Below, piece after piece: positions 3,892-61,400 of a stretch of 64,000 nt of DNA. Numbering within the stretch: position 1 is the first letter of the stretch; every line of letters begins with the position of its first letter. Made by a program: the position numbers and the translations under genes. This stretch comes from Cenococcum geophilum (taxonomy: Eukaryota), in NCBI GenBank assembly GCA_050273025.1, contig CP158635.1:21142001-21206000 (forward strand), written 5' to 3'. The notes below the pieces were generated by a model. That model saw nothing but the letters and a program-made list of their open reading frames with translations, did no database searches and was not told the origin of the DNA.

Positions 3892-4084
3892 TGTTACGGA
3901 ACCCCACCGTAGGGGCCTCTATAGGAGAACCCCGTGCTCTTGCGTACACCTTATATATAGCTTATATCAGCTACGCGTAGGTATATCACTTCCTTACGCC
4001 CTCGACCCTTACGATTGATCGCGTAACGTCTTATAGACTCCTTAAATACATACGCTCTATGGCCACTGCCCCCGTCCTATAATA
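3892..4084 (+). repeat. 3' LTR of Gypsy element
   Basis: TGTTACGG...ATAATA (RIP of ..ACA); homologous in reverse complement to the LTR at 62364-62568. Confidence 0.85.
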
Positions 4085-5375
4085 TAGTAAAACGTTTCTC
4101 TATTACTACCTTTACCACTACTACCGCTTACGCGGTAAGGTTGTTCTTTATATAGCTTCTTTTAGTATTACGGCCCTCCTACTACTTAGTAACCGTACTA
4201 CCTACTCCTGTTTTTAGATACCTATTAATCTATATAAAGAGTCTACTTGTAATATCTCTAAAAGATTAAATCTAGCCAAGCTTCTACGCCGTACCTCTTT
4301 ACTTATTTAGGATAAGGTGCTAATACAGCACCGCTACTACTTTAAAGCTGTATACTATATACTTATAGACATCTATTCTAATAACTCTACCTTTAGTGGG
4401 CTCCCTACTATTTTAGGCGGTAACTTTACTTAGATACTACCTGTCGTCCTATAGGGAAACCGCGTAGCTATTATAGGTGCTTACCTATAGCGGTTATTCC
4501 TCTAGTCTACCTTCTATATTCTTTCCTTACGGTTAAATATACGTATCTACTAGGGCGAGATAAACTAGCAGTTTGCCGCTTAGGTGCGAAGCTTATCCTA
4601 TAATATATCCCTAGCTAATAGGGTTAGTATTCTACCTATTATAGCCTAGTTCCGGTCCTAGGAATCCTTTTACGGGTATATATACCCTCTATATCTACTT
4701 ACGCGGGTATACTATAACCTAAATGCCTTTCGCGATCGCGCTATCCTAACTATTTATAATAATTCTGTAGCTAAGATTAATAAGGCTATCCTTACGCGGC
4801 TCTGCGGCTTCCTAAGCACCTTTTATTTTACGGACTCTATAGAGTAAAATAGAGAAGAAAATTATATAGAACTGCCGCCGGTGGAGCTCCTATAGACATT
4901 TAACCCTAATAACCTACCTCTGTTAAAGCTTTCCCTAAAGGTAAGGGCGCCTATAATTCTTTTACGGAACCTCTACCCTAAGGAAGGGCTCTATAACGGC
5001 ACCCATATGGTTATTACACGCCTAGGCTAGCGCTATATTAAAGCTTAGATGCTTCGCGGCAGCTTTTACAGGTAGCTGCGGCTAATCCCTTATATTAAGC
5101 TTACCTCTATAGAGGGAGAACTACCGTTTATTATTAGTAGAAGGTAGTTTCTAATCCGGCTGTGCTTTACTATAACCGTAAATAAATCGCAAGGGCAGTC
5201 TTTTAACTTTATTAGGCTTAATTTGCGTATACCAGTCTTTACGTATAGGTGGCTATATATTACACTATTAAGAGTAACAGATATATATAGGCTTTTACTA
5301 TTACTATCATAGGATAGGGATAGCACAACCGTTAATATTATATATCTAAAGGTTTTACTAGCCGTTACGGGCTAA
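4085..5375 (+). pseudogene. Helitron PIF1-like helicase, C-terminal part (Helitron copy 1)
   Basis: Starts inside Walker A (GKTFLY); WDE-like, LGGDF-Q-LP, LKVGAP-ILLRNL-P-EGL-NGT, RRQFP-RL-F--TVNKSQGQS and NI-YPEVL motifs; colinear with 36556-37830. Confidence 0.93.
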
Positions 5376-23400: not shown

Positions 23401-24540
23401 AAATATAATCGATTACCTTTTAAAGTGGTTAACTGGTTAACTGGTAGAGATATATCGCTCTTTAGCAATGTCGTGTTTAATTAATAAGTAGACCTTTATA
23501 CATTTTCGCACTAAAGGCCCTTAGACAGCAAATAAGATCGCGCTTCTAAGTACAGGGGTTATATAACGCTAGCAGGGGTTTAATAAAGCTAGTAGGGGTT
23601 TTATATAAAGCTATACTAATTAAGTACTAGCGAGACTTATCTCGTTTACCGTCTAAGTCGCTTACTAAAATAACCTCTATACACCTTTTTTACAACATAC
23701 TCTTTTTTTATTTTATTTTATTTTTATTTTATATCCGTTATATTATACTATATACAATACTACGCATACAGCCTCTAGGCTATGGCGCTATAGTCCTATA
23801 TATATAAACCCCTTAGGGCAGCTTAATATATACTAGTAACTATATCCTTAGTAGTTTATAAGCCCCTAAACTAGGGGTTTATAGTTTCTTAGTAAAATAC
23901 TAAGTTATAAGCAACTACTAGGGAATGAGAAAGTAGTAGAAAACTTATTAGGAATTTTTTTTTTGGGCGCGTTGTTGCAAACGAAAATCGGGGTCTGCAA
24001 AACCTGCGTAAGTCGCAATTTTGGCAATTTGCGGCGATTTGCAGCAATTTGCTACAAACATATAGGCTACCTATGCACGCGCCTGCCCTATTTATGTGTT
24101 TGTAGCAAATTGCTGCAAATTGCCGCAAATGCTAAAATTGCGACTTACGCCTACAGGTTTCGCAGACCCCGATTTTCCGGAGAGTCCCCGGGCACTATTA
24201 TCCCACACAACCATGATTAATAAGCGCTTACTAATGCACACGCACGGGCCGCCATCAACAGTGCGGAAGAACTTCAAAAAAGCATGTCCTCACCGCAACT
24301 TACACCATAGAATATCTACGCAATTACGTAGTAAATAGACTAGTTTAGGGCGTGGAATTAATAGCTTATTATACAGACTAAAAGTCCTAAACAGCTTATT
24401 AAGTGAATATTAGTGCTAGGGCTAAAGATATAACGCCGAAGTCGGACCACTTTAACAGCAAGTTTTCTAGAAATTTTCTACTGTAGAGTTGTTCTAAATC
24501 TATACCTTGTAAAGCCTATATTAACTTCCTACTATACAGC

Positions 24541-27500
24541 ATGGCCAATAGCTCTTCGTTTAATATTAATTCGACTCTTCCTGACCTTAATAAGCTCCTG
24601 CAGCGTCGCCCTGCTGCCCATACTGCCTCTGCTGCCCATACTGCCTCTGCTGCTCTAGTACGAAAACCTGGTGATCGCCAGAGCAACCCCATTAAAGTCC
24701 TTAATACTCCACCCCCTCTTCGCCAGGTTGCTCTAGCCGCTTAGCATAAGGTTCCTCAGGCTCCTTAGGCTCCGTCAACTCCATCTTGGCTTCACTAGCC
24801 ATAGTATATAGATGTAGAGAGCTCGGCACAGGCCTCTGCGCAGGAGTCGTTCTCTCCTCTACCCCCTCCTAGAACTCTAAACCCCAGCAGTCATAAATAT
24901 CGTGCTACTTCTACTTCTTTGGTACATAATACAAATAATCCTCTTTCATAATAGCTTTAATCGCTGTCGCCAGAAGTCAAGATCTAACGTCCAGAGTGGT
25001 AGCTAAACCACCGTTTACATCCGGACCTAGCTCTAGTAGTAAAAAAGGTAGTTAACTCTATACCCGCCCACCACCTTCTAAAGCCATACGATGGTGAGAC
25101 CTTTAAGGATCCTAATGCCGCGTTTAATTAATACTAGGACTACGCCTTCAGTAAAGGCTTCTTTATTATTACACTATCCTCAGGCAATAAAACCGCTCTA
25201 CGGCCGCACCGTATCTTTAGCTGTAAACACCATAGTAAGCACACCCGGAATTACCGTAGGTTAAACAACTTCTGCGGTAAGGATAGCAACCGGTAGCAAG
25301 AGGGCACTAAGGTACACTAAAAGAACTGCGGCTGGTGTATTCAGGTGGCCTAAAAGAAGCTTCCTGGCTATATAGGTAATATTAAGGGATAGGTGGCGAC
25401 TATTACGTATGCCAAGCACTCTAATCTAGAGGCTCTAGAGGCTTTAGAATATAACTTTATTACAAATCCCCTTACTTATATTGGCCACTAGGATCAACTA
25501 CCGGAGGCTAAAGAGGCAGCCGCAAAAGCCTACGCTCTTAGGGCAATATAAGAGACCTATCTTACTGCATAGCATTAACTTTCTACCCAGGAGTTATATA
25601 TAAGCAAGAAGAAATACTATAGCTTAACACAATTATTAAGCGGCCTTCCTAGAGGAGCTGAGGGCCAGCTACAAGCGCTCGGCGCCCTTAAGCTGCTTCT
25701 CCACTAGTATAGATTTAAGTACCGGTCTTAATATACCTATACAATTAATCCAGAATTAGGTCGTTTAATTACCTGGAGTCTCTAGCAGCTAGTATTCTAG
25801 CTTCCTATCCAGGTAGATTTAGCGCAAAGGTTTATTACCGACTTTAGCTGCCAGATAGACGCTATATTTAATACCAATTAATCTAAGCTCTTATTGGCTA
25901 CTATAACCGGCGTCACTAATATGGGGTCCTCTTTTCTAGCAATATAGTCGTTTATTAAGAGTGAGTTTTAGCTAAATTAGACCTTTTTACTAGAGTCTAC
26001 TTAGCAGAAGCTTTAGAAACGGCTACCTAAAGTTATTGTCGCCGACTTTGGTAAGGGCCTTGCGGCCGCCTTATTAGTAGGGCAGTTAATTACAGTTGTT
26101 CTCTAGTACTGCTAGTGGCACGCCGCAAAGGCAATAAAGAAGCGGATTAATAAGGGGATCCAGACAAAGGCTAAAAGGCCGCATAGCTACTTAGCGGAGG
26201 AGAGGAAGGCAGTAAAGGAACTATTTTAGCCCTACCTAAAATCTAAAACGGTAGCAGAGCTTAAAGCCAATTAAAAGGCAGTCCTAGATAAGCTACACCC
26301 GTGCGATAAGGTGTAGTTTTAGACTATATACGTTAAAAAGGAGAGCCAGATAATTACCTGTTATATTAGGTAAGTTTTAGTAAGCTGGGGAATAGAATGT
26401 CGCTATAAGGCATTTGGATGAGCTTTACTATAGGCCGGCCTATAGTAAAGCTCATCCAAATATCTCGTGGTGACATTCTGTTCCCCGGCTTAAAAACCTT
26501 ATTTTAACGTTAACCGCTTACTCCCTCACTAGATACCTTCCAGATTTAGGTGCAGCGGCAAGCTAACGAGGCAAGGGTATTAATAGAGGATTAAAATGCT
26601 TTACCAATTATTAATTAAGCCTTAAGGATACTATAATTAAGCTAAAGAGGTGGATTTCGATACTATGCCAGGAGTTAATCAAATCCGAATATATGTCTAA
26701 AATGTCCCTCCCCCGAACTATTACCCTAGATCTCTTTTAGCACCACTTTACACAGATTAACGGTGTAGTAACACACTACGCGCTTAAGCGAATCTTTAAC
26801 TCTATGTGTGGCGCAAGAGCTTTAATAAATAAGGAAAAGCAGGAGTAGACCAATCGGGAGTAGAAGCAGGACGACTGCAACTACGAAGACCCCTACCAAT
26901 ACGGCCTCCCCTGTCATCACATGCTTATTCGGTACTTAATGCAGAGGCTTCCTATATTGCTAGCTTTAATCCACCCTCGCTAGTATATCGTAATAAAGCT
27001 AATTGCTGCTCCGGATTGGCAGCCGCGATATATTAAGGATATGGCGTTTTAGGGCGACTGTCTGCTAGGGCACCCAGAAGCTCTCACTAGGATCCGGCTA
27101 TTAGTTCTCCGCCTTCTTAATATTATTAAGGACCTTCCTACTAAAGAAATGGGCGAGCTTGCTAATAAATTTAAAGACTTTAAGGTGGCTTAAATAACTA
27201 TTTTAACTAGATAGGCAGAGCTTTAATTACTACCTAAGGGCGCTCCATTTAAGGTTCCTCTAAAGGCTCGCTGGCAGCCACCACCTAAAAAGAAGCACAG
27301 TAAGGCCAACCAGCGAGGTAAAATAAGTGCTGAGATTGCTAAATATGCTGCCGACGTCGCTATACAAAAGCTCCAAAAGGAAACGTAGGAGGAGGCCCAG
27401 AAGCAGAAGGAGCAGGTACTAAGCAGCGGCGTAGATCTTAGCTAATTTCTAATCCAAAACAAAGAGCCAGCCGATGAAGTAGATATGGATATTAAGGAGG

Positions 27501-28028
27501 ATAAGTAGCAACCGTTTAACGAACCGTTGGTGCTATATAACGAAGTTTTAGGGGGGTTAGAGGATAAGGTGGTCATTTTAGAAGCGGAGGAGGACGACGA
27601 CGACTCGTGGCTTAATAACGCGGAAGTACTCCACGGTACTATATTGGACGACCCTCACCAAAATATTGGTAAGAAGGAGCCTATCGCGACCCATTCGGTA
27701 CCTAACAATTATTAAGAGCCGCCTCTCCTACTCTATTAATCCGGCAGAGCGGCGCGCACTAGAGCTTAAAGAACCTATACTTAATTAGCTCGTGGTAATT
27801 TTATATTAATCTTAAGTAATACTAACGAGGATCCTAGTGATCCTAAGCCAAAAGAGGTTGTCGATCCTGAGCGAAAAGAGGTTGGCATTCCATCGAAATT
27901 AAAGTAATAGCGACAGGGAGCTTCTATAGACGCGCATAAGGCTTATAAAGCTAGCGCACTTGCTATTAGGTCCCCCAAGGCTAAGCGCACGCGTAGTAAT
28001 AAAAAGGGAAAGGACCCTGTTGAAATAG
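24541..28028 (+). pseudogene. MULE (Mutator-like) DDE transposase relic with FAR1-like N-terminal and SWIM-like domains
   Basis: ATG 24541; DYAFSKGF, IDA-FNTN-SKLLL--ITGVTNMGSSF (~25855), VIVADFGKGL, YC-WH (~26107), QYGLPCHHM (~26897); probable intron 26370-26532. Confidence 0.9.
26381..26492. repeat. 112-bp loopless palindrome in the transposase intron
   Basis: Two 56-nt arms centred on GGCC|GGCC (26436/26437); mismatches are transitions; TA at both ends. Confidence 0.9.
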
Positions 28029-28217
28029 ACGGCCGAATATTGGAGTATTACACGTGTAAATAGTGCTTTGTTATTCAAATCGGAGTTCAAGTTGGCGATA
28101 GTGGCCTGTGCGGGCTTACTAATTGCTGAGTAATCACGGTTGTGTGGGATGATAGTGCCCGGGGACTCTCCGCCGATTTTCACTTGCAACAACGTGCCTA
28201 AAAAAAAATTCCTGATG

Positions 28218-29001
28218 TAGAGGTTCTGCACGAGGCTCTACACAAAGCTCTGCACGAAGCTCTGCACGAAGCTCTACACGAAGCTCTGCACGAAGCTCTA
28301 CACGAAGCTCTATACAAAGCTCTGCGCGAAGCTCTACACGAAGCTCTACACGAAGCTTTGCACGAGGCTCCACACGAGGCTCTACACGAAGCTCTGCGTA
28401 CAGAGGCTCTGCACGAGGCTCTGCACGAGGCTCTACACGAAGCTCTACACGAAGCTCTACACGAAGCTCTACACGAAGCTCTACACGAAGCTCTGCACGA
28501 AGCTCTGCACGAAGCTCTACACGAAGCTCTACACGAAGCTTTGCACGAAGCTCTACACGATGCTCTACACGAAGCTTTGCACGAGGCTCTACACGAAGCT
28601 CTGTACGAAGCTCTGCACGAAGCTCTACATAAAGCTCTGCACGAAGCTCTGCACGAAGCTCTACACGAAGCTCTACACGAAGCTTTGCACGAGGCTCTAC
28701 ACGAGGCTCTACACAAAGCTCTGCATATAGAGGCTCTGCACGAGGCTCTGCACGAAGCTCTACACGAAGCTCTACACAAGGCTCTGCACGAAGCTCTACA
28801 CGAAGCTCTGCACAAAGCTCTATATAAAGCTCTACACGAAGCTCTGCACAAAGCTCTACGAAGCTCTACACGAAGCTCTACATATGGAGGCTCTGCACGA
28901 GGCTCTGCGCGAAGCTCTACACGAAGCTCTGCGCGAAGCTCTACACGAGGCTCTGCGCGAAGCTCTGCGTACGGAGGCTCTACACGAAGCTCTACATAAA
29001 G
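28218..29001 (+). repeat. 12-mer tandem array (ACGAAGCTCTRC)n, cassette copy A
   Basis: Direct reading; occasional 15-nt variant GTACGGAGGCTCTGC. Confidence 0.97.
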
Positions 29002-29169
29002 CCTTTGTGTGTGTGCGCGCGACACATTACTATTGGGTCCCCGCTATATTCCCGATAGCCTCTACACGTGCCTCTGCTAAGTATACCCCCTATATACACC
29101 TAGGTAGCCACCTCATTTTTTACCCTTCCTTACATCCTATCTAGGAAGACACCAGAACGACAGCCAGCA

Positions 29170-29600
29170 GACGACCGTCGCCGGAGCCAGACGACCATCG
29201 CCGGAGCCAGATGACCGTCGCTAGAGCTAGACGACCGTCAGAGCCAGACGACCGTCGTCAGAGCTGGACGACCGTCGCCGGAGCCAGATGACCGTCGCCA
29301 GAGCTAGACGACCGTCAGAGCCAGACGACCGTTGTTAGAGCTGGACGACCGTCGCCGGAGCCAGATGACCGTCGCCAGAGCTAGACGACCGTCAGAGCCA
29401 GACGACCGTCGTCAGAGCTAGACGACCGTCGCCGGAGCCAGATGACCGTCGCCAGAGCTAGACGACCGTTAGAGCCAGACGACCGTCGTCAGAGCTGGAC
29501 GACCGTCGCCGGAGCCAGATGACCGTCGCCAGAGCTAGACGACCGTTAGAGCCAGACGACCGTCGTCATCGCCACACGACCGTCGCCAGAGCCACACGAC
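29170..29600 (+). repeat. 20-mer tandem array (GACGACCGTCGCCAGAGCCA)n with 77-bp higher-order repeat
   Basis: CCGGAGCCAGATG recurs at 29201, 29278, 29355, 29432, 29509. Confidence 0.95.
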
Positions 29601-29664
29601 AACCGTTTAAACGACCAGCCAGCGAACACGATAAACGATTTGATCGATCGATCGAATTAAGGTG

Positions 29665-30065
29665 ACATAGACAGGTAGGCATAGATAGGTAGGCACAGAC
29701 AGGTAGGCATAGACGGGTAGGCATAGATAGATAGATAGACAGATAGATAGATAGGTAGGTAGGTAGGCAGGCAGGTAGGTAGGTAGGTAGGCAGGCAGGC
29801 AGGTAGGTAGGCAGGTAGGCAGGTAGGCAGGTAGGCAGTTAGATAGCTTTATATTTTATATAGTTATAATATAAATATATTTAAAAGTATATTATAGCAA
29901 TCTATGGAAATATGTGATAATTTAGTTATTATATAATATAATAAAATTTTATATAGTTATAATTTGTACAGTTTATACAGTTTGTATAGTTCGTATAGTT
30001 CGTATAGTTCGTACAGTTCGTATAGTTCGTATAGTTCGTATAGTTTGTACAGCTTGTACAGTTTG
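29665..30065 (+). repeat. 14-mer/AGAT/AGGT/AGGC microsatellite, AT-rich spacer and 9-mer (AGTTCGTAT) array
   Basis: Direct reading. Confidence 0.9.
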
Positions 30066-30406
30066 CGCGCTATTTATTTATAGGGTAGCAAAAAGCTAGC
30101 ATTAGTTTAGTGGTTGAGCGTTTTACTGTAATTTACTAGCAGAAGCTGCAAATTTGTTACGAAACGCGCTGTTTACGCGAATCGCTAACGACCATATACG
30201 ACCACGCAAATCGCATAGTTTGCAGCAAATTGCCGCAATCTGCAACAACGCGCCTAAAAAAAAATTTCCTGATGCCTATAAGAAATAAGAAGTCCTAACG
30301 CCTATCCCTATCCTTTTATAATTTATTTCTATCCTTTTACTTTCTAATATCTCTTTACTAAGAGCCTAGTAGGAGTTACCTCCTTCTATAGATCCTGTTA
30401 TTATTA

Positions 30407-32833
30407 CATTGGGAAAATATTCGCAGGATAAGATTCAAGTAGACTTTATATAGCGCGTTTCGCGTAATTGACATGTAATTTGACCAACTTGACACGCAAT
30501 TGACCAACTTGACACGCAATTAACCAACTTAACATGCAATTTAACTAACTTAATACGCAATTAACCAACTTGATATGCAATTTAACTAACTTAATACGCA
30601 ATTAACTAACTTGATAACTTTAAAAGCTAACTGCATATTCCTTGACACGCAGTTAACCTATTTAACAACTTTAAAAGCTAACTGTATATTCCTTGACATG
30701 CAATTAAGGTAAAGCTATATGCCAATTACGCAATCTTATATAATCTTACATAGTCTTATTACTTAGAGGCTCTGCACAAGGCTCTGCACAAGGCTCTACA
30801 CGAAGCTCTACACGAAGCTCTACACGAAGCTCTACACGAAGCTCTACACGAGGCTCTGCACAAGGCTCTACACGAAGCTCTACACGAAGCTCTACACGAG
30901 GCTCTGCACAAGGCTCTACACGAAGCTCTACACGAAGCTCTACACGAAGCTCTACACGAAGCTCTACACGAAGCTCTACACGAAGCTCTACACGAAGCTC
31001 TACGTACAGAGGCTCTGCACGAGGCTCTGCGCGAAGCTCTGCGTACGGAGGCTCTGCACGAAGCTCTACGTAGAGGCTCTGCACGAGGCTCTGCGCGAGG
31101 CTCTGCGTACGGAGGCTCTGCACGAAGCTCTGCACGAAGCTCTGCACGAAGCTCTGCACGAAGCTCTGCACGAAGCTCTACGTACAGAGGCTCTGCATGA
31201 GGCTCTGCGCGAAGCTCTGCGTACGGAGGCTCTGCACGAAGCTCTACGTAGAGGCTCTGCACGAGGCTCTACGCGAGGCTCTGCGTACGGAGGCTCTGCA
31301 CGAAGCTCTGCACGAGGCTCTGCACGAGGCTCTGCGCGAAGCTCTGCGTACGGAGGCTCTACACGAAGCTCTGCACGAGGCTCTGCGCGAAGCTCTGCAT
31401 ACGGAGGCTCTACACGAAGCTCTACACGAAGCTCTATACGAAGCTCTACGTACAGAGGCTCTGCACAAGGCTCTGCGCGAAGCTCTGCGTACGGAGGCTC
31501 TACACGAAGCTCTGCATCGGGTCCCCGCTATATTCCCGATAGCGTCTACACGTGTCTCTGCCTATGTAGCCGCCTTATTTTTTACCCTTCCTTCCCTCCT
31601 TACATCCTCCCTACCTAGGGAGGCACTAGAACGGCAGCCAGCAGAGGACCGTTGCTAGAACTAGATGACTATCGCTAGAACCAGACAACCGTCGCCAGAA
31701 CCAGACGACCGTTACCAGAACCAGACGACCGTCGCTGTCGCTAAACAACCGTCGCCAGAACCAGACAATCGTCGTTAGAGCCAGACGACTATCGCTAGAG
31801 CCAGACAACTGTTGCTAGAACCAGACGACCGTCGCCAGAACTAGACAACCGTTACCAGAACTAGACGACCGTCGCCAGAGCCAGACGACCGTCTCCAGAG
31901 TTAGACGACTGTCGCCAAAACCAGACGACCGTCGCCAGAGCTAGACGACCGTCGCCAGAACCAGACGACTGTCGCCAGAACTAGACGACCGTCGCTAGAA
32001 CTAGATGACCGTCGCTAGAACCAGATAACCGTTACTAGAGCCAGACGACCGTTACTAGAGCCAGACGACCGTTACCAGAACTAGACGACCGTCGCTAGAA
32101 CCAGACGACCGTTGCCAGAACTAGACGACAACGACTAGCCAGCAAACACTATAAACAATTCGATTAATTAATCGAATCAAGGTAGTATAAACAGGGAGAT
32201 GCTGACGGGTAGGCAGATGCAGACAGGTAGGTAGATACAGACAGGTAAGCAGATACAGATAGGCAAGCAGATGCAGACAGGTAGGCAGATGCTGACGGGT
32301 AGGCAGATATAGACAGGTAGGCAGATGTAAATAGGTAGGCGATGCAGATAGGTAGGCGATGCAGATAGGTAGGCAATGCAGACAGGTAGGCAATGCAGGC
32401 AGGTAGGCAATGCAGACAGGTAGGTAATGTAGATAGGTAGGCAATGCAGACAGGTAGGCGATGCAGGCAGGTAGGTAGATAGGCAGGTAGGTAAGTTAAT
32501 AGGTAGATAGGTAGAAGAGAACCATCGCTATATTATATTAAATTATCTAAAATAATATTATTTATTTTGCTAGCCTTATAAATAGCTTTAAAATAGCTTT
32601 TATTTATTTAAAATATGCTATTAGTATAAAAGAGGTAAATATAATTATGGTTGCTAAATGCGCAGATTGCTGGCAGGTTGCGCGCAGGTTGCGCGCAGGC
32701 TGCGCGCAGGCTGCGTGTTAAAAAAACACGACATAGGCTAGTCGGTCGAGTTGCCAAATGACCTCAACTGCGCGCCAATTGCGTCAACCACCAACCATTG
32801 AGGCCATTGAAAGGGTACTATATTTTGCCGATG
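30407..32833 (+). mobile_element. Non-autonomous TIR element carrying satellite cassette copy B
   Basis: Termini CATTGGGAAAATA / TATTTTGCCGATG, TA on both sides, inserted at the end of LINE ORF2; 20/21-mer array (30480-30615), 12-mer array (30765-31516), spacer, 20-mer array (31645-32128), 17/18-mer AGGT-derived array (32200-32510). Confidence 0.85.
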
Positions 32834-34674
32834 TAGCTACTTTCTAGTGGCTATCCCTATTCTACTTAGGAATAGAAAAAGTGCCTTTCTTCCCTTTTAT
32901 ATACAAAATAACTTTTCTAAAAAGAGAGAAGAGCCTAGTTTCTTTTATATTTCTCTTCTTTCTTCTCTATATAGGTTATAGTCTAGTAGTAGATGTCTAG
33001 GGGTTTATAGTGCTCTATATTCCCTAAAGCATCTACCATCTTCATTCTCCCCCCTATTACTTTAGAGAAGGATTTAAAATAGCCTTTTCCTAGCTTTAGC
33101 TGGAAGAAAGCTAATTGTAGCCTTTTAGGATATTTATCCTTAGGGGCTTTAAGAGAAAAGGAATGACTTCCTTTACAGATCCTAGTATAGTGTTTTCCTT
33201 TATTCTTATTCTGTTGCTAGTTATTTTCCCACTATTCTAGTATCTTTTCTCTTGCTGCTCTCCCTATATAGGCTAGGGAGGTATAAGAAGATTATAGTTT
33301 TCTTCTAGAAAGGCCCTTTTTAGCTAGCTTATCTGCTATTTCGTTCCTATAGATTCCTAAATGGCTAGGAACCCAGTAGAAGTTAATAGAGATCCCTTTA
33401 CCAGCTAGATAGAAACAGCTTTATATAATTTTAAAGACTAGTTCTTGCCCCCCTATAAGAGAATTAAGCTATAATCTTTTAATAGCCGCTTGGCTATCTA
33501 TAAAGATATAGACTTATTTCTCTTCTAATCTTTATTATTTTAGGTGTTTTACGGCCCTATAGACTGTATAGATCTCTATGTCTATAATTTCCATATAGGG
33601 TCCTAGATTCCAGTTTATTGCATATTTAATCCTATTTCTCTCCCCTATTTTATATATGGCAGCTACGTTTAATTTATTGTCTTTAGAGCTATCTGTATAG
33701 TATATATCTACTAGGTCCCACTCTAGGGATTTTTATAAATTTTCTACTAGTCTTAGATGTTCTTATGCAGCTTCTTCCTTACTACCTTTTAAGATAGAAA
33801 AGGATGCATAAATAGGAGGAGACTACGGTTTTTGCTATTCTAAAGAGATTCTCTCTATTTTCCAATTTTAAATTAGCTGCTAAACTCTAGAGGCTAGAGA
33901 TAGTAGCTGTGTCTTTGGCTGTAAGAGGTACTTTATAGTAGAGTTTTTAGGGCTAGAACTAGAGCTAGAACTAGCTGCTAACTTATCCCTATCTTTATTG
34001 ATCTCTTCTATATTAACCTTCTTAATTACGTAGTTTTCCTTAAATTTTAGGATTCTTAATGCGTAGTTATTGTAAAGCTTTTTAAATCTAATTCTAGGAG
34101 GAGGAATAGAGGCTTTAATCTCTATAGCTTAGCTAGGAGATCCTCTAAAAGCTCCTAAAACTAGTCTTAGGGCCTTATTTTATAGAGATTGGTACCTATT
34201 TAGTAGGTGGTCTCTAGATTTGCTTTTCCACCAGCATTATACTTTGTAGTCTGCTATAGTAGTAACGCAAGCTATATAGAGCTGTCGTAGGGCTTATAGA
34301 GATAGACCTCTTTGTATATTACCTAGCCTTCTAATTAAATAGAAAGCTGCCTTTACTTTAGGGATTTGTATTTCTATATGTTGTTTAAAAGTAAGCTTAG
34401 AGTCTAGGAATACCCCTAACTACCTAACTAGGGGTTTAGGGGATATTTCTACGTCTCCTAGCTTTAACCCTTCTTCCATAGTGGTACGTTTACTATAGAA
34501 GTATATAAGCTCTATTTTGCTAACGTTAAAACTAATAGCAGCTTCTTTAGCTTTAGATATTAGCTCTAGCGCTATTCTCTCTAGCTTTTTGCAATTAGAT
34601 TTAGCAGAATTTAAAGTAACCATAATTGCAAAATCGTCTATGTAGCTAAGAGAATAGGCTGCAACATACTCTTA

Positions 34675-37600
34675 CAATAGCGTTATAAATACTCTTACCT
34701 ACTATAATCTAGACCCTAAATTATTAGGCCACTGCGTAGTTTTTCTATCTTGTTTCCTTAGCGGAGATCGCTTTATTAGGCAGTGCTATTAGGATTTAAT
34801 AGCTATTATCTATAAATACGGCCGTCTAAGTATATTTCTTACGTTTACTGCTAACCCTAAATAGGACGAGATTACCTATAAGCTACTGCCTGGCTAGACC
34901 GCTATAGATAGGCCCAATCTAGTTATGCGCGTCTTCTATATAAAACTTATCCACCTCTTTTACAACCTAAAACGGAAGTAGATCTTTAGCTAGTACTACG
35001 GCTCTATTTAAACTATTAAGTACTAAAAACGGGGCCTGTCCTATCTATACCTACTACTCTTTCTATATTTATATAACCGCAATAGGCTACTAAACCTAGC
35101 CGTTATTGACTATTTTATATCCGCTAAGCTTCTATAATTAGAGGACAATCCTACTAGCTGTCTTACTAAGATTATAAAGTTAATAATAGTTTATAGCCCT
35201 TACGGCTCCTAGAATCCGTAGGCTCCCTATATAGTTACGCTAGGGCTAGGCCTTCTACTAACCTACTTAAAGCGGTACCCTAAGCCTTTTAACCCTACTA
35301 CTGTTATATATAAGGACGGCTATCCAGAATACCGCCATTGTAATAATTTGCGGTTATAGTCTATCCGCTTACTAGGGGGGGCTATATTTAAAATAAACAA
35401 CCACTAGATTATTCCGTACTGCCTATATTTAACTATAAAGCATTATACGTATATAAGTGTTAAGGTCTGCGCCTCCGTAAAGTCCGTTAAGTATATCTAT
35501 AAGTATATATATAAGGGGAGCGATCGCACTACTTTACGGCTTATAGATGGTAATAAGGTAAGCTAGTATTTATAGGGCTATTATATCGGCCCCTCCGAGG
35601 CTATCTAGCAGCTATTTAAGTTTCCCGTTTATAAGGAGTTCCCCCCTATAATTTAGCTTACGGTACACCTTTTAGGCAAGTAGCCCGTATACTTTTAGCT
35701 AGATTAGTCCGTAGAGGAGATCTAGTAGCGCTTTTAGCTCTCCTACTCTACCTTAACGGCCTTCTTTAGGTATAATATAGAGTATAAGAATAACCGTAAC
35801 TAGCTATATTAAGACTTTCCTAAACGGCACGTCTTTTATATAAAGCGCTGGGAGTAGCGTCCTTACTAGTAAAGTACCGTAATAGGCTATATATATTACT
35901 ACAGCCCTATTATAAGTAAGAGGTTCTACTTACGGCTACTATTAATATCCATTTTTAGCCCTACCTCCTTTAAAGACCTCTATACTATTGCTAGTATAGC
36001 CTATCTAACCTTCTAGGCCGCCTACGTTACCCTAGGGCTACTAGAGGATAATTATAAGTGGATTAATTACTTAACAAAGGCCGCCGTTTTTGCTATTAGC
36101 GCCTAGCTATACTCCTTATTCGTAACCGCTTTAATTTACGGCCCTATTATAGAGCTAGTTGCTTTATAGGACCGCTTTAAATAGTCTATTTATAATAATC
36201 TACCTTACTTTCTAGCCCGCTAACCTAATGCTCCTCCTATAGTTACTAAGGATAATAACACCTATTTTAATTACGGCCTATACCTTATTTATTAGATACT
36301 TACAAATTACTAAAAGATGCTTATAGACTATAGCCTGCCCTAGTTCTAGCACTAGTAGGGTATTATTGCTAAGGGAAGTAACCCGCTTCTTATAGCGGAG
36401 CTACTATAATATAACCCTATAGAGGAAGAATGCTAATATATTAAGCTACGCTAGCAGCTAAATGTAAATTAGGCAGCGTGCTTTAATACTATTATTACCG
36501 CTATAGATGCGGATCTATAAACCGCTCGCTTCTTTCTCTAGGGCCCTATAAGCACTAGTAAAACGTTTCTCTATTATTACCTCTACCACTACTACTGCTT
36601 ACGCGGTAAGATTGTTCTTTATATAGCTTCTTCTAGTATTATAGCCCTTTTACTACCTGGTAGCCGTACCGCCCACTCCTATTTTTAGATACCTATTAAT
36701 CTATATAAAGAGTTTACTTATAATATCTCTAAAAGCTTAAATCTAGCCAAGCTTCTACGCTGTACCTCTCTACTTATTTAGGATAAGGTGCTAATATAGC
36801 ACCGCTACTACTTTAAAGCTGTACACTATATACTTATAAACGTCCGTTTTAATAACTCTACCTTTAGCGGACTCCCTACTATCTTAGGCGGCAACTTTGC
36901 TTAAATACTACCTATCGTCCTATAGGGGAACTGCGCAGCCATTATAGGTGCCTACCTATAGCGGTTATTCCTCTGGCCTACCTTCTATATACTATCCCTA
37001 TGGTTAAATATACATATCCGCTAGGGCGAGATAAATTAGTAGTTTGTAGCTTAGGTATAAGGCTTATCTTATAATATAGCCCTGGCTAGTAGTATTAGTA
37101 TCCTACCTAGTATAGCCCTATTCTAGTCCTAGGAACCCTTTTACAGCTATATATATTCTCCGTAACTACTTACTTAGGCATATACTACTCTTAATATCTT
37201 CCGCGATCGCGCTATCCTAACTATTTATAATAATACTATGGCTAAGATTAATAAGGCTATCCTTACGCGGCTCTGCGGCTCCCTAAGCACCTTTTATTCT
37301 ATAGACTCTATAGAGTAAAATAGAGAAGAAAATTATATAGAACTGCCGCTAGTAGAGCTCTTACAAATATTTAACCCTAGTAGCCTACCTCCGTTAAAGC
37401 TTTCCCTAAAGGTAGGCGCGCCCGTAATCCTTTTACGGAACCTTTACCCTAAGGAAGGGCTCTATAATGGCACCCGTATAGTTATTACGCGTCTAGGCCG
37501 CCGCTGTATTAAAGCTTAGATACTTAGCGGCAACTTTTACGGCTAGCTACGGCTAATCCTTTATATTAAGCTTACCTCTACAGAGGGAGAACTGCTGTTT

Positions 37601-37833
37601 ATTATTAGTAGAAGGCAGTTTCTAATCTGGCTATGCTTTATTATAACCATAAATAAGTTATAGGGGTAGTCTTTTAACTTTGTTGGCGTTAACTTACGTA
37701 TACTAGTTTTTACCTATAGGCAGCTCTATATTACCCTATCTCGGGTTACTACCGTAAATAGTATTTTAGTACTGCTTTCCCTAAATTAAATAAAGATAGA
37801 TAATATTATCTATTTAGAAGTCTTACTTTTGTA
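34675..37833 (+). pseudogene. Helitron Rep (HUH) and PIF1 helicase, remainder of copy 2
   Basis: FLTFTANP-W-EI (~34836), (E)Y(Q)KRGL-(H)L(H) (~35018), KY--KYIYKGSD (~35490), Walker A GP--T(G)KTFL (~36542), helicase motifs through NIIY-EVL. Confidence 0.93.
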
Positions 37834-37974
37834 ATAAGGTATATTATTTTATTATATAACTACTTTTATAACTGCCCTATAGGGCTAGCAAAACTTTTAT
37901 AAATGCCCTATAGGGCCCAGTAAACCCCCCCTCTACCCCCCCTCTACCCCCACTCCCCTACTCCTTATCCTTAT

Positions 37975-38927
37975 CCTCCGATAACTCCTCCTTAAGTATA
38001 GCCGCTAAATGGCGGAGCAGCCCTGTAACCCGCCCGCGCCGCCTAAGACGGGGGCGGACGCGGGCAGGTAGGGCCTTCTCTTCCTCCTCCTTATCATCGT
38101 CATCGTCGTTATTATCGTCGTTGGCGGTGGCAGTAGCGGGAGGTGCGGGAGTATAGAAGCAGGAGCGGGAGCGGGCTGCGGCGGGGGAGGTAGCAGACGC
38201 TATTATCTCTATTAGTTATGCTTTTATAGCTTATATTACTAACTTATAGGCCCGGAAGGAGCAGCGCGCCCCTTTGTTGCTATAATAGTAGTTAGTATAG
38301 CTGCTACGTAGCTAGCCCGCGACTAGTACATACTCCGTAAATAGGCCGCCGCCCTATATATACGACGTATAAGCCTATAGGGCTACCATACCCTAGCTTT
38401 AGGCTAGGGCGGCCTTTGCATTTAGGGCCCTAGCCTTAAGGTAGACCCCCTAGTAGACCCTAGAAGCTCTACCTAAGCTAAAAGCCTACTATAGAGATAC
38501 ACCCTAAACGCGTGGTAGGGGATATAGCGCCCGCATTACAGCCGTGTTAGCGGTAGCGGCTTCGGCGGCAGTGGTAAGCGCGGTAGGCGAGGGATTTTAG
38601 GGTAGAAGGGCGGTGGGCTAATTTACGGCTATAAAGCTGGCTGGGGGGGGAGCAGCGGCAGCGGGGGTAGTAGGGGTAGCGAGAGCGGTGGTAGTAGCGG
38701 AAGTAGTGGTAGCGGCAGCAGTAGGAGCGGGGAGGGGTCTGGTAGCAGCAGCAGCTATAGCAGCTATTTACATATTAGTATCTTCTTAAATTCTTAAATT
38801 CTTAAATTCTTTTATAGTACTAATACTTACTAGTACACTTATCTGCTGGGACTAAAGTCTCGCGCGCAGGCACCCTAGCCTAAGACGGCGGCGGCAAGGA
38901 CAAGAAGTAGCGGCCGGGCGCGGACAT
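37975..38927 (-). pseudogene. DUF3716-like Cys-rich protein relic with one intron, lying within Helitron copy 2
   Basis: ATG at 38927; intron GTAAGT...CTAAT...TAG (~38830-38765); NA(E)AALA...GG(P)FTE(C)VLVAG-LR(G)S(CA)N(CH)Y-N-GARCSFR (~38425-38250). Confidence 0.7.
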
Positions 38928-40051
38928 GGCGGCGGCAGCGGCGGTGGTGGTAACGGTAGTAGTGGTAGTGGTAGTGGTGGCAGCGGTGGTAGTAGCAGCA
39001 GGAGTAGGAGCAGAAGACGCAGCAGCAGCAGCAACGGCAGTGGTGATGGTAGTAGTGATAGTGCTATTGCTTAAGGAAGAAGAAGAAGATAACGACAACG
39101 ACGTAAATAGCTATTGTTAATCTACGTCACGTGATTAATTATATAAATCTATATCACGCGATTATCACATAAAGGCAGCCTTACGTCACTACTACGGTAG
39201 TAGGGCGGTAGCGAGGTAATAGTGGGATAGTAGTGGGGCAGTAGCAGGGCAGTAGTAGGGTAGTAGTAGGGCAGTAATATGTAGTAAATGGCAGTAATAG
39301 GCAGTAAAGGGAAGTTAAAGCTTTAATACTGTATTATATTTATTATATCTTATTCTTATTTCTACTTTATATAGATATATATAAAAATATTAATAGCGTT
39401 TATAATAGTGTTTATAATAAGTTAATTAATAGTCCTAATAGTAGGGTCTTTTATATATATAAGTATCTTATATAACATTTTTATAAAATAGATTTAATTC
39501 TAAATATATAATATATTCTATAATATAAAGTACTTTATATAATAGTAAAAGTAGTACTATATAAAATTAAAATAAAAGTAAAAATAAAAGTTATAGCTAT
39601 AGCTAAAGTAGTAAAGTTAGTAAATTAAAAAGGAATTAATATAGTATATAAAAAAGAATAAAAATAGTAATAGTACTATAAATAGAAATAAAGGTAAGAA
39701 TAAAGATAATAATAGAAATAAAAATAGTTATAATATAGTATTAAAATTAATAAACTAATATAATAATTAATATAAAAGATAAATAGATAATAATAATAGT
39801 AATAATAAGGTAGAAATAGTAGTAATAATAATAAATTAGGAACTAAAGTAATAGTAAAAAATAGTATATAAGTAGTAATAAATATAGCTATAAATTAGGA
39901 AATAAAGATATATTAGAAGTAATAAAAAGGAAGTTATTTTAGTAGTTAAAAGGGAAGTAGTAAAGGTAGTAAGGGTAGTAATAAAAATAGTAGAATAGTA
40001 GAATAGTATTACGGTAGTAGTAAGTAGTAGCAGGGTAGTAGTAGGGCAGTA

Positions 40052-42364
40052 CGTCAGGAAAAAATTTACCAGCATTTTTACAGTATTTAGCAGCATTTAG
40101 CGGCCAAATGCGCATTCCGCGCACTACAACGTATAGCGTATAGTATTGACTAAGGTGCGGCATACTGCCGTATTTAATAATGCGATGCAGCATACTGCTG
40201 TATACTACTATATTTAATAACGCGGTACAGCTAACTGCCGTATTTAATAATGCAGTGCAGCTAATTGCGCATTTTGCACTTAATGCGCAATTAATATATA
40301 ATGCCCTCCTCGTGCATTCTGTATATAATGCCCTCCTTACGCATTTTATATATCTTACTCTTCCTACACACTTAATAGTATTTGCTTAGTTTATATAGTT
40401 AGTGCAAAATTATATTATTTTAGATAATTTAATATATAGCGACGGTTCTCTTCTACCTACCTACCTACCAACCTACTTGCCTACCTACCTACCTACCTAC
40501 CTACCTGCATACCTGCCTACTTACCTACCTACCTACCTGCCTATTTACCTACCTGCCTACCTGCCTACCTATCTATCTATACCTACCTATTTATACCTAC
40601 CTATCTGTGCCTACCTATCTATGCCTACCTATCTATGTTACCTTAATTTAATCAATTAATTAAATTATTTATTATATTCGCTAGCTGGTTATTTAAACGG
40701 TTGTTATATAGCTCTAGCGACAGTTATCTAGCTCCAGCGACGGTCGTCTAGCTTTAATAACAGTCGTCTGGCTCTAACAGTCGTCCAACTCTAGTGACGG
40801 TCATCTAGCTCTAGCAACAGTCGTCTAGCTCTAATGACGGTCATCTAGCTCTAACAGTCGTCCAGCTCTAGCGACGGTCATTTAGCTCCGGCGACGGTCG
40901 TCTAGCTCTAATAACGGTCGTTTAGCTCTGACGGTCGTCTAGCTTTAGCGACGGTCATCTAGCTCTAGCGACGGTCGTCCAGCTCTAATGACGGTTGTTT
41001 AGCTCTAATGACGGTCATCTAGCTCTAACAACGGTCGTCTAGCTCTAACAACGGTTATCTAGCTCTAACGACGATTGTCTAGCTCTAACGACGGTTATCT
41101 AGCTCTAACAACGGTTGTCTAGCTCTAACGACGGTCGTCTAGCTCTAACAACAATTATCTAGCTCTAGCGACGGTTATCTAGCTTTAGCGACGGTTATCT
41201 AGCTTTAATAACGGTCGTTTAGCTCTAACGGTTATCTAGCTCTAGTAATAGTTGTCTACTAGCTATCATTCTGGTGTCTTCCTAGGTAGGGAGGATATAA
41301 GAAAGGGTAAAAAATAAGGTGGCTACCTAGGTATATATAGGGGGTATACTTAGTAAAGGTACGTATAAAGGCTATTGGGAATATAGCGGGGACCCAATAC
41401 GGAGCTTCGTGTAGAGCCTCCATACGTAGAGCTTCGTATAAAGCCTCTATACGCAGAGCTTCGCGCAGAGCCTTATGTAGAGCCTCTATATATAGAGCTT
41501 TATATAGAGCCTTATATAGAGCCTCGTATAGAGCTTTATATAAGAGCTTTGTATAGAGCTTTGTACAAAGCTTTATGCAGAGCTTTGTGTAGAACTTCGT
41601 ATAGAGCTTTATATAGAGCTTCGTGTAGAGCCTTATATAGAACTTTATATAGAGCCTTATATAGAGCTTTATACAGAGCCTTATATAGAACTTTATATAG
41701 AGCTTTATATAGAGCTTCGCGTAAAGCTTTATATAGAACTTCGTGTAGAGCTTTATATAGAGCTTTATGTAGAGCCTCGTATAGAACTTTATATAGAGCC
41801 TTGTATAAAACTTCATATAGAGCTTTATATAGAGCTTTATACAGAGCCTTATATAGAACTTTATATAGAGCCTTATATAGAACTTCGTGCAGAGCTTCAT
41901 ATAAAGCTTTATGTAGAACTTTGTATAGAGCTTTGTGCAGAGCTTTATATAGAACTTCGTGCAGAGCTTTATATAGAGCTTCGTATAGAACTTTATGCAG
42001 AGCTTTATATAGAGCTTCGCGCAAAGCTTTATACGAAACTTTATATAGAACTTTAAACTTTATATAGAACTTTAGGAAAAAATTACTAGCATCTAATTTT
42101 ACTTTTCTGCCATTTTAGCATTTTCTAGCATTTAGCAGCTAAATCCTAATACTTAATTATAAATACAGCTAAATGCTAATACTTAATTATAAATGCGGCA
42201 TTTAGCGGCTAAATGCTAGTACTTAGTAATAAATGCTGCATTTAGCTACTAAATACTAATACTTAATTATAAATGCGGCATTTGGCGGCTAAATGCTAGA
42301 AAATACTAAAAATGCTAAAATGGCAGAAAAGTAAAATCAGATGCTGGTAAATTTTTTCCTGACG
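40052..42364 (-). mobile_element. Non-autonomous TIR element carrying satellite cassette copy C (inverted), with a third internal TIR at ~42071
   Basis: TA-CGTCAGGAAAAAATTTACCAGCAT ... ATGCTGGTAAATTTTTTCCTGACG-TA; TACC microsatellite, 20-mer array (40715-41258), spacer, 12-mer array (41400-42070); ~42071-42364 is itself a foldback unit. Confidence 0.88.
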
Positions 42365-42635: not shown

Positions 42636-43916
42636 GCATATATTACCCTATTAAATCGCAACCTTATAACTAACCCTTCTACACCTATAATACACCCCCT
42701 AATAGTAGGTAAATAACTTTTCTATTTAGATAGATTTATAGAGCTTATAAAGTGCTTTAAAAAAATAGTACCACTTTTATCTAAATATCCTAAGGGTAAG
42801 TAATATTATACTAATGTAAAGTTTTATAGCTTTATAAAAAATTCATAGGGGGCGCACGGAGCTTTATATAGAGCTATACATGGAGCTCCATAAAAGCTCT
42901 ATATAATACTCTATAAAAGCTCTACATAAAGCTCTACTAAAAGCCTATTTAGAGCTCTAAAGCTCTACTAATATGCAGTACTAATATACTAGGAAGTCTT
43001 ATAACCGTCTCTACGAGTAGCTCTATAACGAACGGCTCTATAACCGCCTATATAATCGCCTATATAAACGGCTTTATAAACGGCTCTGTATTGTCTCTAT
43101 AACGGCTCTACTATTACCTATATAGTCGCCCATACAACCGCCTTTACGATATCTCTACATTTCCCCTATAACAGCTTATAAATGGCCCTACGACAGCCCT
43201 ATAACGGCCCTACGACGGCTCTATAACGGTTTTATAAACGGCTTTACTATAATAGCTTTACAATCGGCTTAGTAATAGCTCTATAAACGGCTCTATAAAC
43301 GGCTCTACTATCGCCTATATAAATAGCTCTATAAAACGGCTCTACTGTCGCTTATATAATCGCCTATATAATTGTTCGTATAAACGGCTCTTTAATAGGT
43401 TAGGGGGGGCTATGCATAGAGCTCTATTTAGAAACTGTTATATACATATATAACTACGCGTATATAACTACCGCGTATATAACTACCGCGTATACAACCA
43501 CCGCGTACACAACCCTTATTACTACTACTACTCTATAGATCTCCCCCTTAACCGCTTATTTTATGCCTATTATTATTACACCAGGTCTATTTCTAAATAC
43601 CCCTTTAATTCTAACGGTCTCTACCTTACTATATATATTTACTGCCAGTATAGGCAGAAGGAGAGGAAGGAGAAGGAGTAGGCCTAATAGCCTTTACAAT
43701 AGCCTCCGCAACAGCCTCTACAGCAGTCTCCGCAGTAGTCTCCGCAGCAGTCTCCGCAGCAGCCTCTATAACAGCCTCCGCAGTAGTCTTTATAACAGCC
43801 TCCGCAGCAATCTCTATAGTAGCCTCTATAGCAGTCTCTACGCTACTACTTTAGTTATAACTAGCTGCACCAACCTTTCTAATTTAGTTGGTTTAAAACT
43901 TATAAGATCTGCCTTA

Positions 43917-57800: not shown

Positions 57801-58415
57801 ATTTATAATAATCTGCCTTGCTTTCTAGCCTGCCAACTTAATACTCCTCCTATAGTTACTGAGGATAATAACACTTACTTTAATTACGGCCTATACCTTA
57901 TTTATTAAATACTTATAGATTACTAGAAGACGTTTATAAACTATAGCCTGCCCCAGTTCTAGCACTAGTAGGGTATTATTACTAAGGGAAGTAACCTGCT
58001 TCTTATAGTAGAGCTATTATAATATAACCCTATAGAGGAAAAATGCTAGTTTATTAACCTATACTAGTAGCTAAATATAGATTAGGCAGCGTAATTTAAT
58101 ACTATTATTACCGCTATAGATGCGGATTTGTAAACTACCTACTTCTTTCTCTAGGGCCTTACAGGCACTAGTAAAACGTTTCTCTATTACTACCTCTACT
58201 ACTACTACTACTACTCGCGTAGTAAGATTATTCTTTATGTAGCTTCTTCTAGTATTACAGCCCTTCTACTACTCCTATTTTTAGATACCTATTAATCTAT
58301 ATAAAGAGTCTACTTATAATATCTCTAAAAGCTTAAATCTAGCTAAGCTTCTACGCCGTACCTCTCTACTTATTTAGGATAAGGTGCTAATATAGTACTA
58401 CTACTACTTTAAAGC
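54767..58415 (+). mobile_element. Helitron copy with Rep/helicase relic (~55125-58415), cut by a Gypsy LTR
   Basis: Colinear with 5574-7208 + 34675-36820; EYQKRGLPH-like motif ~56790; Walker A ~58155. Confidence 0.9.
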
Positions 58416-61400
58416 TGTTACGGAGTAAGTATAAGTAGCGATAATATATAGCAAGGTAGATATTATTAAGCTATATATATAAACTGTGTAAGGAGGTTAA
58501 GACGTTGTATAAGGAAAGAAGGTAGGAAAATGGGAAGAAAGGGTATATATTGTGGACTTAGTTACTTAGTTAATACATACACAGAGCAAAATAGGATTTA
58601 GGTAGTGGTCCTAGCAGAACTTAGTAGGATTTAGTAAAACTTAGTAGAACTTAGTAGAACTTAGTAGAATATAGCAGAATGCGGTAGGTTGCCGTCAGAT
58701 TGCTATAGATTGCTATTAGATTGCTGTCTTATGGTTAGTCTCTAGTTGCTAAGTTGGTAGAAATAGATAGATATGTATAAGGTGTTACGGGGGTGTCCTA
58801 TAACAGTACCCCCCCTTTAAACTCGAGCTTCTATAAGATAGGGCTGTAGTAGTTCTGGGTGGAGTTTATAAAAGTCTTCTGTAGCTTATATAAGTCCTAT
58901 AGAGTTAAAAGGTTCCTATAAGGGCTTAGTAAAGCCTCTCCATTTCGTAAGATATATATATTAGCGTTTCCGTTTATTATACTTAATATTATTAATTCTT
59001 TTAATAAAGTACTCGTTTTTACTATCTACTTTAACTAATAGGGGAGGGTTTTATATCTGTCTAGGTAGGGCGTCTAATACGGGAGTAGTAGGGCGGAGGA
59101 CTAACGTGTAGAATACGGGGTGGATTTTAACCGTATTAGGGAGCTTTACTTAGTAGGTATAGGATAAAATAACCTTCTTAACCTTATAAGGGCCAGCGTT
59201 CTTCTAATTAAGCTTCTTAATAGGTTGTTTTATGTTTAGATTTCTTATATTTAGCCAGACGAAGTTATTAATTTAGTAGGCCGGTGCTAGGGTTCGTTTC
59301 TTATTCGCTGCGGCCTTATAGACAGATTAAGCCTATATTATTTTATTAGTAAGGAACTATTATAGTTCCTCTATCTTCTTTATAAATTTATTTACTTCTA
59401 TAATTTATAAGGCGTAATAAGTAGGGCGAGGAATATTACTAAAGGGTTTAAAACCTATTTATAGATACTAGCTGTAGTTGGCTAGGAATGGAGAGACCTT
59501 TATAGTTTCTAAGACGGAATTATTTATAATAAACTTAGTAAATGCAAGCTAGTTAATCTAGTTATTTTATAAGTATGACGTGTATATCCAAATATACTAT
59601 TCTATTATAGTATTTATATATTCTATTTAGCCATCTATTTCTAGGTAATATATTATAGACAATAGTACTTTAATACGGAGTTAGGTAGTTAGTTCTTTTT
59701 AAAATTTAGAGATAAACTAGCTACCTCTATTAGAGATAATCGTTTTAGGGAGTTTATAGAGTTTCTATACGTAATCTAAGAACAGCTAGACAATGGTAGG
59801 TGTTAATATATTAGGGCAGGCGATTAAGTATCTTATCTTAGATAGTTAGTCTATAACTACTATAATATTCGTGCAGCTCTTACTTACGGAGAGGTCAATA
59901 ATAAAGTTAATTAAGATGTCCTTTTATCTTCGGTTCGGAATAGGCAGTGGCTTTAAAAGGCCGTTGTATATCTTATGCAAAGCTTTAGCTTATTGGCAGA
60001 TATAGTAGCTAGAGATGTACCTTTATGTTATATTATATATATTCGGCTAATAGTATTCTTATTAAAGCAGTTCTAGGGTTTTTCCTTAGCCTAGGTGGCC
60101 GGCTACTAGTAAATTTGTAACCGACTACCGGACCTTATATATTACCCTGTTTTACCTACGTTAGCACTACCCTCATATGTTTCGGATACGTTTAATATAA
60201 GTTATAGGCTCCGGAGTTAGGGGTCTACTTTTATGTATTTATACCACTTGATTTCCATAAATTTACAATTAAGTTGCTTATTTAATTCCCACACACTGCA
60301 AAGCTTACAGTTATGAGCCCGGCCTGCCTACTGTACTACATCTAATCTGTACATTTAGCGCTTACTAAGCAATTAATCTACTACCTCGTTTAAGAAGTCA
60401 CTACTTCTTCTACCTTTATAAGTGTTTTAAGCTTCTTTCGGGTACCTCTCTTATACTTATAATTACCTTTATTTACTAAACGGACGGACGATCGAATATT
60501 GATCGTATTAAACATTGATTGAACCGAACTGAACCTGACCGTATAAACCCGACCGTATAAACCCAACCTCCTTTAACCCAGATACACAACCATTTAATAG
60601 AGTCGACCTATTTACTATAGCGTAACGACCTTATATGGCGTCTAAGTAAGAGCCTAGCTAGCGCAATAGCCCGAGTACAGAGCTAGAGCGAGATGCTAGA
60701 GCACAGAGCTAGAGCGAGATGCCAGAGCACAGAGCTAGAGCGAGATGCCAGAGCACGGAGCTAGAGCAGAAGCTAGCTTAGATATACTAATAGTGAGAGA
60801 CAAGGATATTAGGTAGACATAAGGAAGGTATTAAACCGACAGCAGCCAGTAGTGAACTATCGCCAAAACTAGACAACTATTTAAACGACCAGCTAGCGAA
60901 TATTAGATTAAACCAAACTAGAGCCTTAATATAGGCCTGTCGCCAAATCAAATCAAGGCCTCCTGGGGAGGCACCAACGCTACAATTAGTCGCAGCTATT
61001 ACGCTATAGACGCCTTCCGCTACAACTAGTCGCAGCCGTCACGCTGTAGACGCCCTACCAAAAACCAGTCTACCACAGACAACCAGTCGCAGCCATCACG
61101 CTGTAGACGCCCTTCCGAAACGCCAGCCTACATTGGCACCAGCCTTATTGGCACCAGTTGCGACGACCGCAACGTCACCAAATACGACGTCTTAACGTCA
61201 CTAGAGTCACCAAGTGACTACTTCCAGATCTACCTCGATTACAGCTTATATGGCTACAGCTTAAATAACTACCTTAAACACAGATCTAAATATCTACCTC
61301 GACTATGGATTAAAAGGATCTACCGCGAGCACGGATTAATTAATTGCCTTAAATGCAGATTAAAATACCACACCTAGATCAAATGATTTAGTAGAGCCTC

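Follow-up and report, generated by a model that had tools for sequence, protein, structure and literature searches.

The 64,000-nucleotide stretch of DNA analysed here (the window) is AT-rich and repeat-mutated, with a GC content mostly between 0.30 and 0.40 and a TpA/ApT ratio of at least 1.3 across all parts measured, a composition consistent with RIP-active ascomycete DNA. It contains three copies (A, B and C) of an element in which a core with tandem arrays lies between two arms, and one of these copies also carries a MULE. The features are listed below; the 12-mer, 20-mer and AGRY arrays were detected by TRF.

23946..30274, + strand: copy A, a whole non-autonomous element with A-type arms and three termini, carrying a nested MULE (delimited by its termini and empty sites)
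23946..24177, + strand: first part of the A left arm (a foldback), ending in the MULE target duplication (24169-24177); 95% identical to the MULE-free arm of locus L055
24178..28172, + strand: nested dead MULE of 3,995 bp with its own ~75-bp TIRs and the 9-bp duplication CCGATTTTC
24541-26369 and 26533-~28090: MULE ORF, with a putative intron at 26370-26532
28173..28217, + strand: remainder of the A foldback, including the inner (third) terminus; TA and the 12-mer array come next
28218..29846, + strand: core of A (12-mer array, spacer, 20-mer array, motif, microsatellite)
28225-28996, + strand: 12-mer array of the A core
from 29035, + strand: hairpin spacer of the A core
29168-29600, + strand: 20-mer array of the A core, with a 77-bp higher-order repeat
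29611, + strand: motif of the A core
29666-29846, + strand: AGRY microsatellite of the A core
29847..30274, + strand: A right arm with 9-mer repeats and the outer terminus
30407..32833, + strand: copy B, a two-terminus element with B arms and a TA duplication, lying in the 3' end of the LINE that also hosts copy A
40052..42364, - strand: copy C, a three-terminus element with C arms and a TA duplication
42071..42364, - strand: C left arm, a foldback of two inverted left arms; the inner terminus is truncated here and intact in six sisters

The cassette copies and their insertion sites

An earlier note on this DNA had described three ordered homologous cassettes, and this description was upheld, the homology spanning the region from the 12-mer array to the microsatellite. 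The spacers start at 29035 (+), 31519 (+) and 41395 (-), and the three copies are identical to each other at 115/131, 133/153 and 119/148 spacer positions, the differences being mostly transitions. The termini placed by that note at 23946, 28217, 30274, 30407, 32833, 40052 and 42364 were all recovered, as was the ~290-bp foldback at 42071-42364, whose inner terminus is without its last letters. The AT-rich tract, which had been counted as a further shared module, did not hold up: past the microsatellite the copies are only 44-53% alike with many transversions, ~60 bp are common to B and C only, and the right arms are otherwise unrelated.

The earlier proposal that matched outer termini carry a conserved non-coding cassette from place to place agrees with the empty site found for each whole copy. 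Copy A interrupts a LINE in its 3' region; the empty form of this LINE is present in L066 and L005, and the empty-site joint (23943 to 30276) was found in contigs of runs X8 and X1; its flanks (CT and CC) are one transition away from a 2-bp duplication. For copy B the empty site is seen as a loose end at 30384 in run X1, and the host sequence of copy C has uninterrupted paralogues near 5430 and 54600 in the window. The empty sites of A, B and C lie at the outermost termini, which were therefore the ones used when each cassette moved. The contig and read evidence at run level comes from four of the 24 public runs listed as containing the stretch, which include root and fungus metagenomes.

To survey the family, a 25-letter spacer pattern was searched in metagenome contigs, which gave at least 120 stretches (loci with an L number), and flanking sequence was retrieved for 80 of the listed loci. 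The copy set consists of 120 listed metagenome loci and the three window copies (123 in total), with both ends visible in 16. All listed loci were chosen via the exact spacer 25-mer, hence via the cassette; they may derive from several strains or species, and some mosaics could represent misassembly. The spacer and terminus patterns had no occurrence in the viral contigs and none in the genome contigs scanned.

Several other elements were seen in the window. A 1.9-kb element with ~100-bp TIRs (19275-21188) has pogo/Fot1-like DDE words by eye, three related pieces (34673-37900, 4085-5268 and 56447-58418) look Helitron Rep/helicase-like by eye, and 1-3800 and 62395-64000 are inverted, by eye Gypsy-like copies. 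Degenerate 12-mer arrays at 42855-43394, the first of which weakly resembles the cassette 12-mer, have neither spacer nor termini nearby.

A MULE passenger in the left arm of copy A

Fungal Mutators go under the name MuDRF. The MULE domain in copy A is real, as the transposase exon matches Pfam PF10551 (E 8.7e-10). Word-indexed protein searches with the broken exon found no relatives; an index-free search found 362, and all five relatives tested match PF10551. The TIRs start with CGGAGAG and are unrelated to cassette arms A-F, and the target duplication CCGATTTTC is present with 9/9 letters on both sides. When the MULE was removed in silico, a ~265-bp foldback was restored that is 95% identical to the uninterrupted left arm of L055; MULE-free foldbacks are also present in L080, L045, L052 and the second copy of L002. 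The segment 23946-28217, which had been read as a MULE transposase unit, turned out to be this foldback, into which a separate MULE (24178-28172) is inserted.

Among the matches listed, the MULE body occurs in one of the 120 loci (L039). This second copy (4,002 bp, 88% identical over 3.75 kb) lies at the array/spacer junction, a cassette position different from that in the window, and its target duplication retains 8/9 letters. The summed contig depth in run X1, which is not a copy number, was ~1,000-5,200 over the MULE versus ~78,000-300,000 over the arrays, and this contrast points the same way as the rarity of the MULE among the loci. The putative intron of the window MULE contains a ~125-bp hairpin (26374-26497), which is also found in L039.

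The element shares with canonical MULEs the MULE domain, the TIRs and the 9-bp duplication, with nothing notable differing, and is an ordinary member of this group killed by RIP. For Muta1, a canonical MULE, duplications of 8-9 bp have been described (PMC5225508).

The earlier note had proposed that the MULE unit, or its MITE, moves the satellite cargo using the outer TIR. Both MULE copies seen, in the window and in L039, do sit within cassette elements, but L039 came from a cassette-based search. The two copies occupy two different insertion points, each with its own 9-bp duplication, as against 2-3 bp for the cassettes; the TIRs are the MULE's own and unrelated to the cassette termini, and MULE-free sisters and empty sites of the MULE exist. 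Inner units at differing positions with their own target duplications, which the note itself had named as speaking against its proposal, are what the MULE presents. The MULE was rejected as mobiliser, and this reading is now extremely improbable. Membership of the cassette elements themselves among the MULEs was also rejected, since none of the 16 two-ended copies has an 8-11-bp duplication and the termini are not those of the MULE. The MULE entered the left arm of copy A later and is a passenger there.

Termini, target duplications and the third terminus

The family comprises at least 120 metagenome copies of elements 1.4-2.4 kb long without protein, which have short CATC/CGTC termini, arms with subterminal repeats and a common satellite core, and which inserted as whole elements with 2-3-bp duplications. 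Arms A, E and F end in the CATCA type, B in CATCGG or CATTGG, and C and D in CGTCA; left and right arms are alike over only ~8-30 bp. Among the 16 two-ended copies the duplication was TA in eleven and TC, TT and ACC (L049) in one each, and it was inexact in two, window copy A and L003 (flanks TA and TT). Thus 14/16 copies have a 2-3-bp duplication, the probability of a random 2-mer match being 0.076. TA was found beside 37 of 65 termini, against a background of 0.14, and the other 28 flanks are not TA, which shows that the TA target is preferred and not required.

Several assignments were tried and rejected. Tc1/mariner elements have a strict TA target, and a Tc1/mariner MITE does not accommodate the TC, TT and ACC duplications or the 28/65 flanks that are not TA. 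Foldback/Galileo membership would need long matching TIRs and 7-9-bp duplications, in place of the ~8-30 bp and 2-3 bp seen here. The passages on Styx/IS3EU in one source (PMC10853768) do not fit, nor do the 6-bp duplication and TAYGG ends given in another (PMC12730594).

The closest resemblance is to PlavakaB of the CMCT clade, which is defined by CATCA..TGATG termini and 2- or 3-bp duplications (PMC12730594). CATCA opens 27 of the 28 PlavakaB FASTA starts compared (29 of the 55 supplement entries), and of the 28 supplement families compared four start with CATCAGGAAA, nine with CATCAGCAAA, one with CATCAGCATTTT and one with CATCGGGG (PMC12730594). The cassette elements are like PlavakaB in having CATCA-type termini (arms A, E and F) followed by a run of A or T, a very short terminal match and 2- or 3-bp duplications, and the A and E termini match published starts over 9-12 letters (PMC12730594). 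They differ in having no transposase, and the portions of that account cited do not describe CGTCA and CATCGG end variants, a satellite core common to six or more types of arm, or a left arm that forms a foldback; one non-autonomous family, PlavakaB-N1_FiHe, is listed there (PMC12730594). None of the 21 intact ORFs from the loci encodes a Plavaka transposase, and none was found within or beside any copy; terminus scans for a transposase partner in the viral and genome contigs covered were empty. Judged by their ends and duplications, the cassette elements are probably moved by a Plavaka-type enzyme.

With the same anatomy, the mover could instead be a Mutator/IS256-fold family making 2-bp, mostly TA, duplications, or a different lineage of CMCT, for the CGTC-ended C and D arms at any rate. 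CGTCA, the C and D end, is indeed missing from the 29 PlavakaB starts compared, of 55 (PMC12730594), but the 9-12-letter matches of the A and E termini in the same source and the 3-bp duplication of L049 argue against such a mover, which we consider improbable.

The inner terminus had been placed at a fixed position in the earlier note, and this proved correct. A third terminus is present in 7/14 A-type and 7/12 C-type left arms (the truncated window C counted), is decayed or absent in the rest, and was missing from all 12 B left termini. The inner arm is an inverted copy of the left arm, not of the right arm. All six intact C cases have the inner junction TAGAGG, which points to one origin; the A inner junctions vary (TAGAGG, TAGG, TAAATG, GTAT, CTAT). 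In L013 the left arm of one B copy has an inverted B copy joined into it head-to-head, and self-insertion of this kind could yield a third terminus. This sole intermediate is of the B type, a type without three-terminus copies among the 12 left termini.

A free foldback MITE, as had been envisaged, was not seen: each foldback in the 120 listed loci and the window is the left arm of a cassette, a result that carries little weight in loci selected by the cassette. An apparent free A foldback in L002 was rejected, being the left arm of a cassette on the opposite strand. These data bear on a composite-transposon route, in which free foldback MITEs would first land at a TA close to the cassette's 5' end and then move the core via the distal terminus of their own type. 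The varied A inner junctions resemble independent insertions with the TA bias of the family; however, equally varied junctions would be produced by adjacent deletions that start from an active inner terminus, and neither a free foldback nor one with array on both sides occurs in the 120 listed loci and the window. The composite route is a possible but rather unlikely origin of the third terminus.

Taken together, the cassettes are likely to represent a high-copy, non-autonomous cut-and-paste family in a RIP-active ascomycete that depends on PlavakaB, has a swappable core and carries the MULE as a passenger. In this model a PlavakaB-type (CMCT clade) transposase would act in trans and read the termini together with the subterminal repeats, so that only recognised arm pairs would move. 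The third terminus would stem from the head-to-head insertion of one copy into a sister copy, after which a deletion between palindromic subterminal repeats would leave a left arm and an inverted left arm. The resulting three-terminus unit would move with its outermost pair, and the inner terminus would often decay. The tandem arrays would serve as homology islands, at which ectopic recombination or gap repair could swap the core between arm types.

Probable exchange of the core, and RNA reads over it

One core is surrounded by at least six arm types (A-E and F/H variants), and some copies of this core do without the 12-mer array. In 24 of the 27 copies having both arms the left and right types agree, and the mixed-arm copy L077 still has a TA duplication. 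When arms were compared with the spacer indel type, all four combinations were found (A: long 7, mid 2; C: long 4, mid 7). A spacer identical in purine/pyrimidine code is common to L007 and L045 (A arms) and to L030, L042 and window copy C (C arms); among 42 such RIP-blind haplotypes in 68 typed spacers it is the only one that crosses arm types. Taking the independence of core and arm types together with this common spacer, copy C is seen to combine an A-like 5' core with a B-like junction after the microsatellite. Misassembly is possible at single loci, yet window copy C carries the same mosaic. The identical spacer under A and C arms points to core swapping, and exchange within the common arrays appears to be the simplest cause of the arm/core mosaics.

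The cassettes also seem to collect insertions, small elements being present in the arrays of L009 (210 bp) and L051 (490 bp). L076 has a long core form with ~5 copies of a ~330-bp higher-order repeat. Truncated cassettes adjoin a HET-domain gene (Pfam) in L032 (5405-6619) and, downstream of the spacer, an ankyrin-like ORF (by eye) in L012. The 12-mer array was also considered as a protein-coding repeat, which was unsupported: with the common 15-bp variant set aside, the frame is kept in 72/119 non-12 steps, and the frame-keeping ones are mostly missed 24-, 27- or 36-bp steps.

Raw RNA reads of run X21 cover the 12-mer array, the spacer and the 20-mer array (7,992 reads placed from 12% of the run). 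First mates over the cassette bins are divided by strand as 2503 vs 168 (14.9:1), and the depth over the MULE (24334-27820) is zero; given the usual library chemistry, the core RNA runs in the direction of the cassette. RNA-type contigs of X6 are far deeper on the core. The X21 reads are mostly less than 95% alike, and their variant words match D/E-type cores, with one word matching no surveyed locus; a few loci could give all of the core signal. A piece of the core was also found in an LTR element of the window:

60116-61879: non-coding LTR element with ~193-bp LTRs, 5-bp duplication AAATT and repeat-rich interior, holding the 137-bp core piece
60839..60975, + strand: 137-bp core piece (spacer end, one 20-mer, motif, palindrome), 76% identical to L062 (E 3e-24)

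Some of the core reads may stem from such LTR elements. The observations on core RNA and LTR sharing come from a single raw run and a single LTR copy.

At its start the spacer has a 9-bp stem; the spacer fold is not unusual compared with shuffled sequences (z -1.5). The first 25 letters of the spacer are exact in at least 120 copies, which were selected by that 25-mer; indels abound in what follows. A known RNA family was rejected for the core, as the three weak Rfam matches in six loci were all far under the gathering score.

These data could be explained by a core that has a function as a transcribed module (a non-coding RNA or a cis signal), which may have originated in non-coding LTR elements and which several transposon families retain as helpful. 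The strand-biased X21 reads with none on the MULE, the deep X6 contigs, the core piece within the LTR element and the exact spacer start agree with this. On the other hand, the divergent reads with D/E-type words could all come from a few loci, neither the fold nor Rfam singles out the spacer, and the exact start is how the copies were chosen, the remaining spacer being indel-rich. A functional core is considered doubtful. The same low probability is given to a wider reading, in which the core would stand on its own as a transcribed module, an RNA built of satellite sequence or a cis signal, that circulates among six or more TIR arm families as well as non-coding LTR elements and is kept for its benefit to the carriers, and the foldback arm would be a recurring, selected three-terminus design in non-autonomous Plavaka elements of fungi.

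Relation to known systems

Each ingredient of the preferred PlavakaB-dependent family has a precedent in PlavakaB ends, satellite-carrying CACTA elements and MITEs, solo-TIR elements and chimeric cores. Galileo of Drosophila mojavensis likewise has repeat-rich arms, arm extension and chimeras with the ends of one subfamily round the interior of another, but it belongs to the P superfamily and has long matching TIRs and 7-bp duplications (PMC3573991). Plant MULEs with an extra solo TIR are also three-TIR non-autonomous elements that move whole; they are of another superfamily, rare and almost never multi-copy (PMC3310237), whereas here about half of the A and C arms have the third terminus. Tandem-repeat MITEs such as DTC84, which has AA duplications (PMC3879986), and satellite-carrying CACTA elements (PMC8978399) likewise hold an ordered tandem array and a microsatellite between inverted ends, the satellite being spread by the transposon; one core under many arm families is not described in the portions of these two accounts cited. 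The literature covered, which excludes Repbase reports and most subscription journals, held no account of the cassette family or of a core common to Plavaka arm types.

Without a functional link to RNA or LTR elements, the locus would be neat but of a familiar kind, in which nesting, chimerism and the spread of a satellite come together. What it offers the little-studied Plavaka group is a concrete set of high-copy non-autonomous elements, whose several arm types can be matched to their transposases, and it presents tandem arrays as probable sites where transposon subfamilies of a RIP genome exchange sequence. The core would be a mobile non-coding module of a new kind if function lies behind the strand bias of the RNA and the presence of core sequence in LTR elements.
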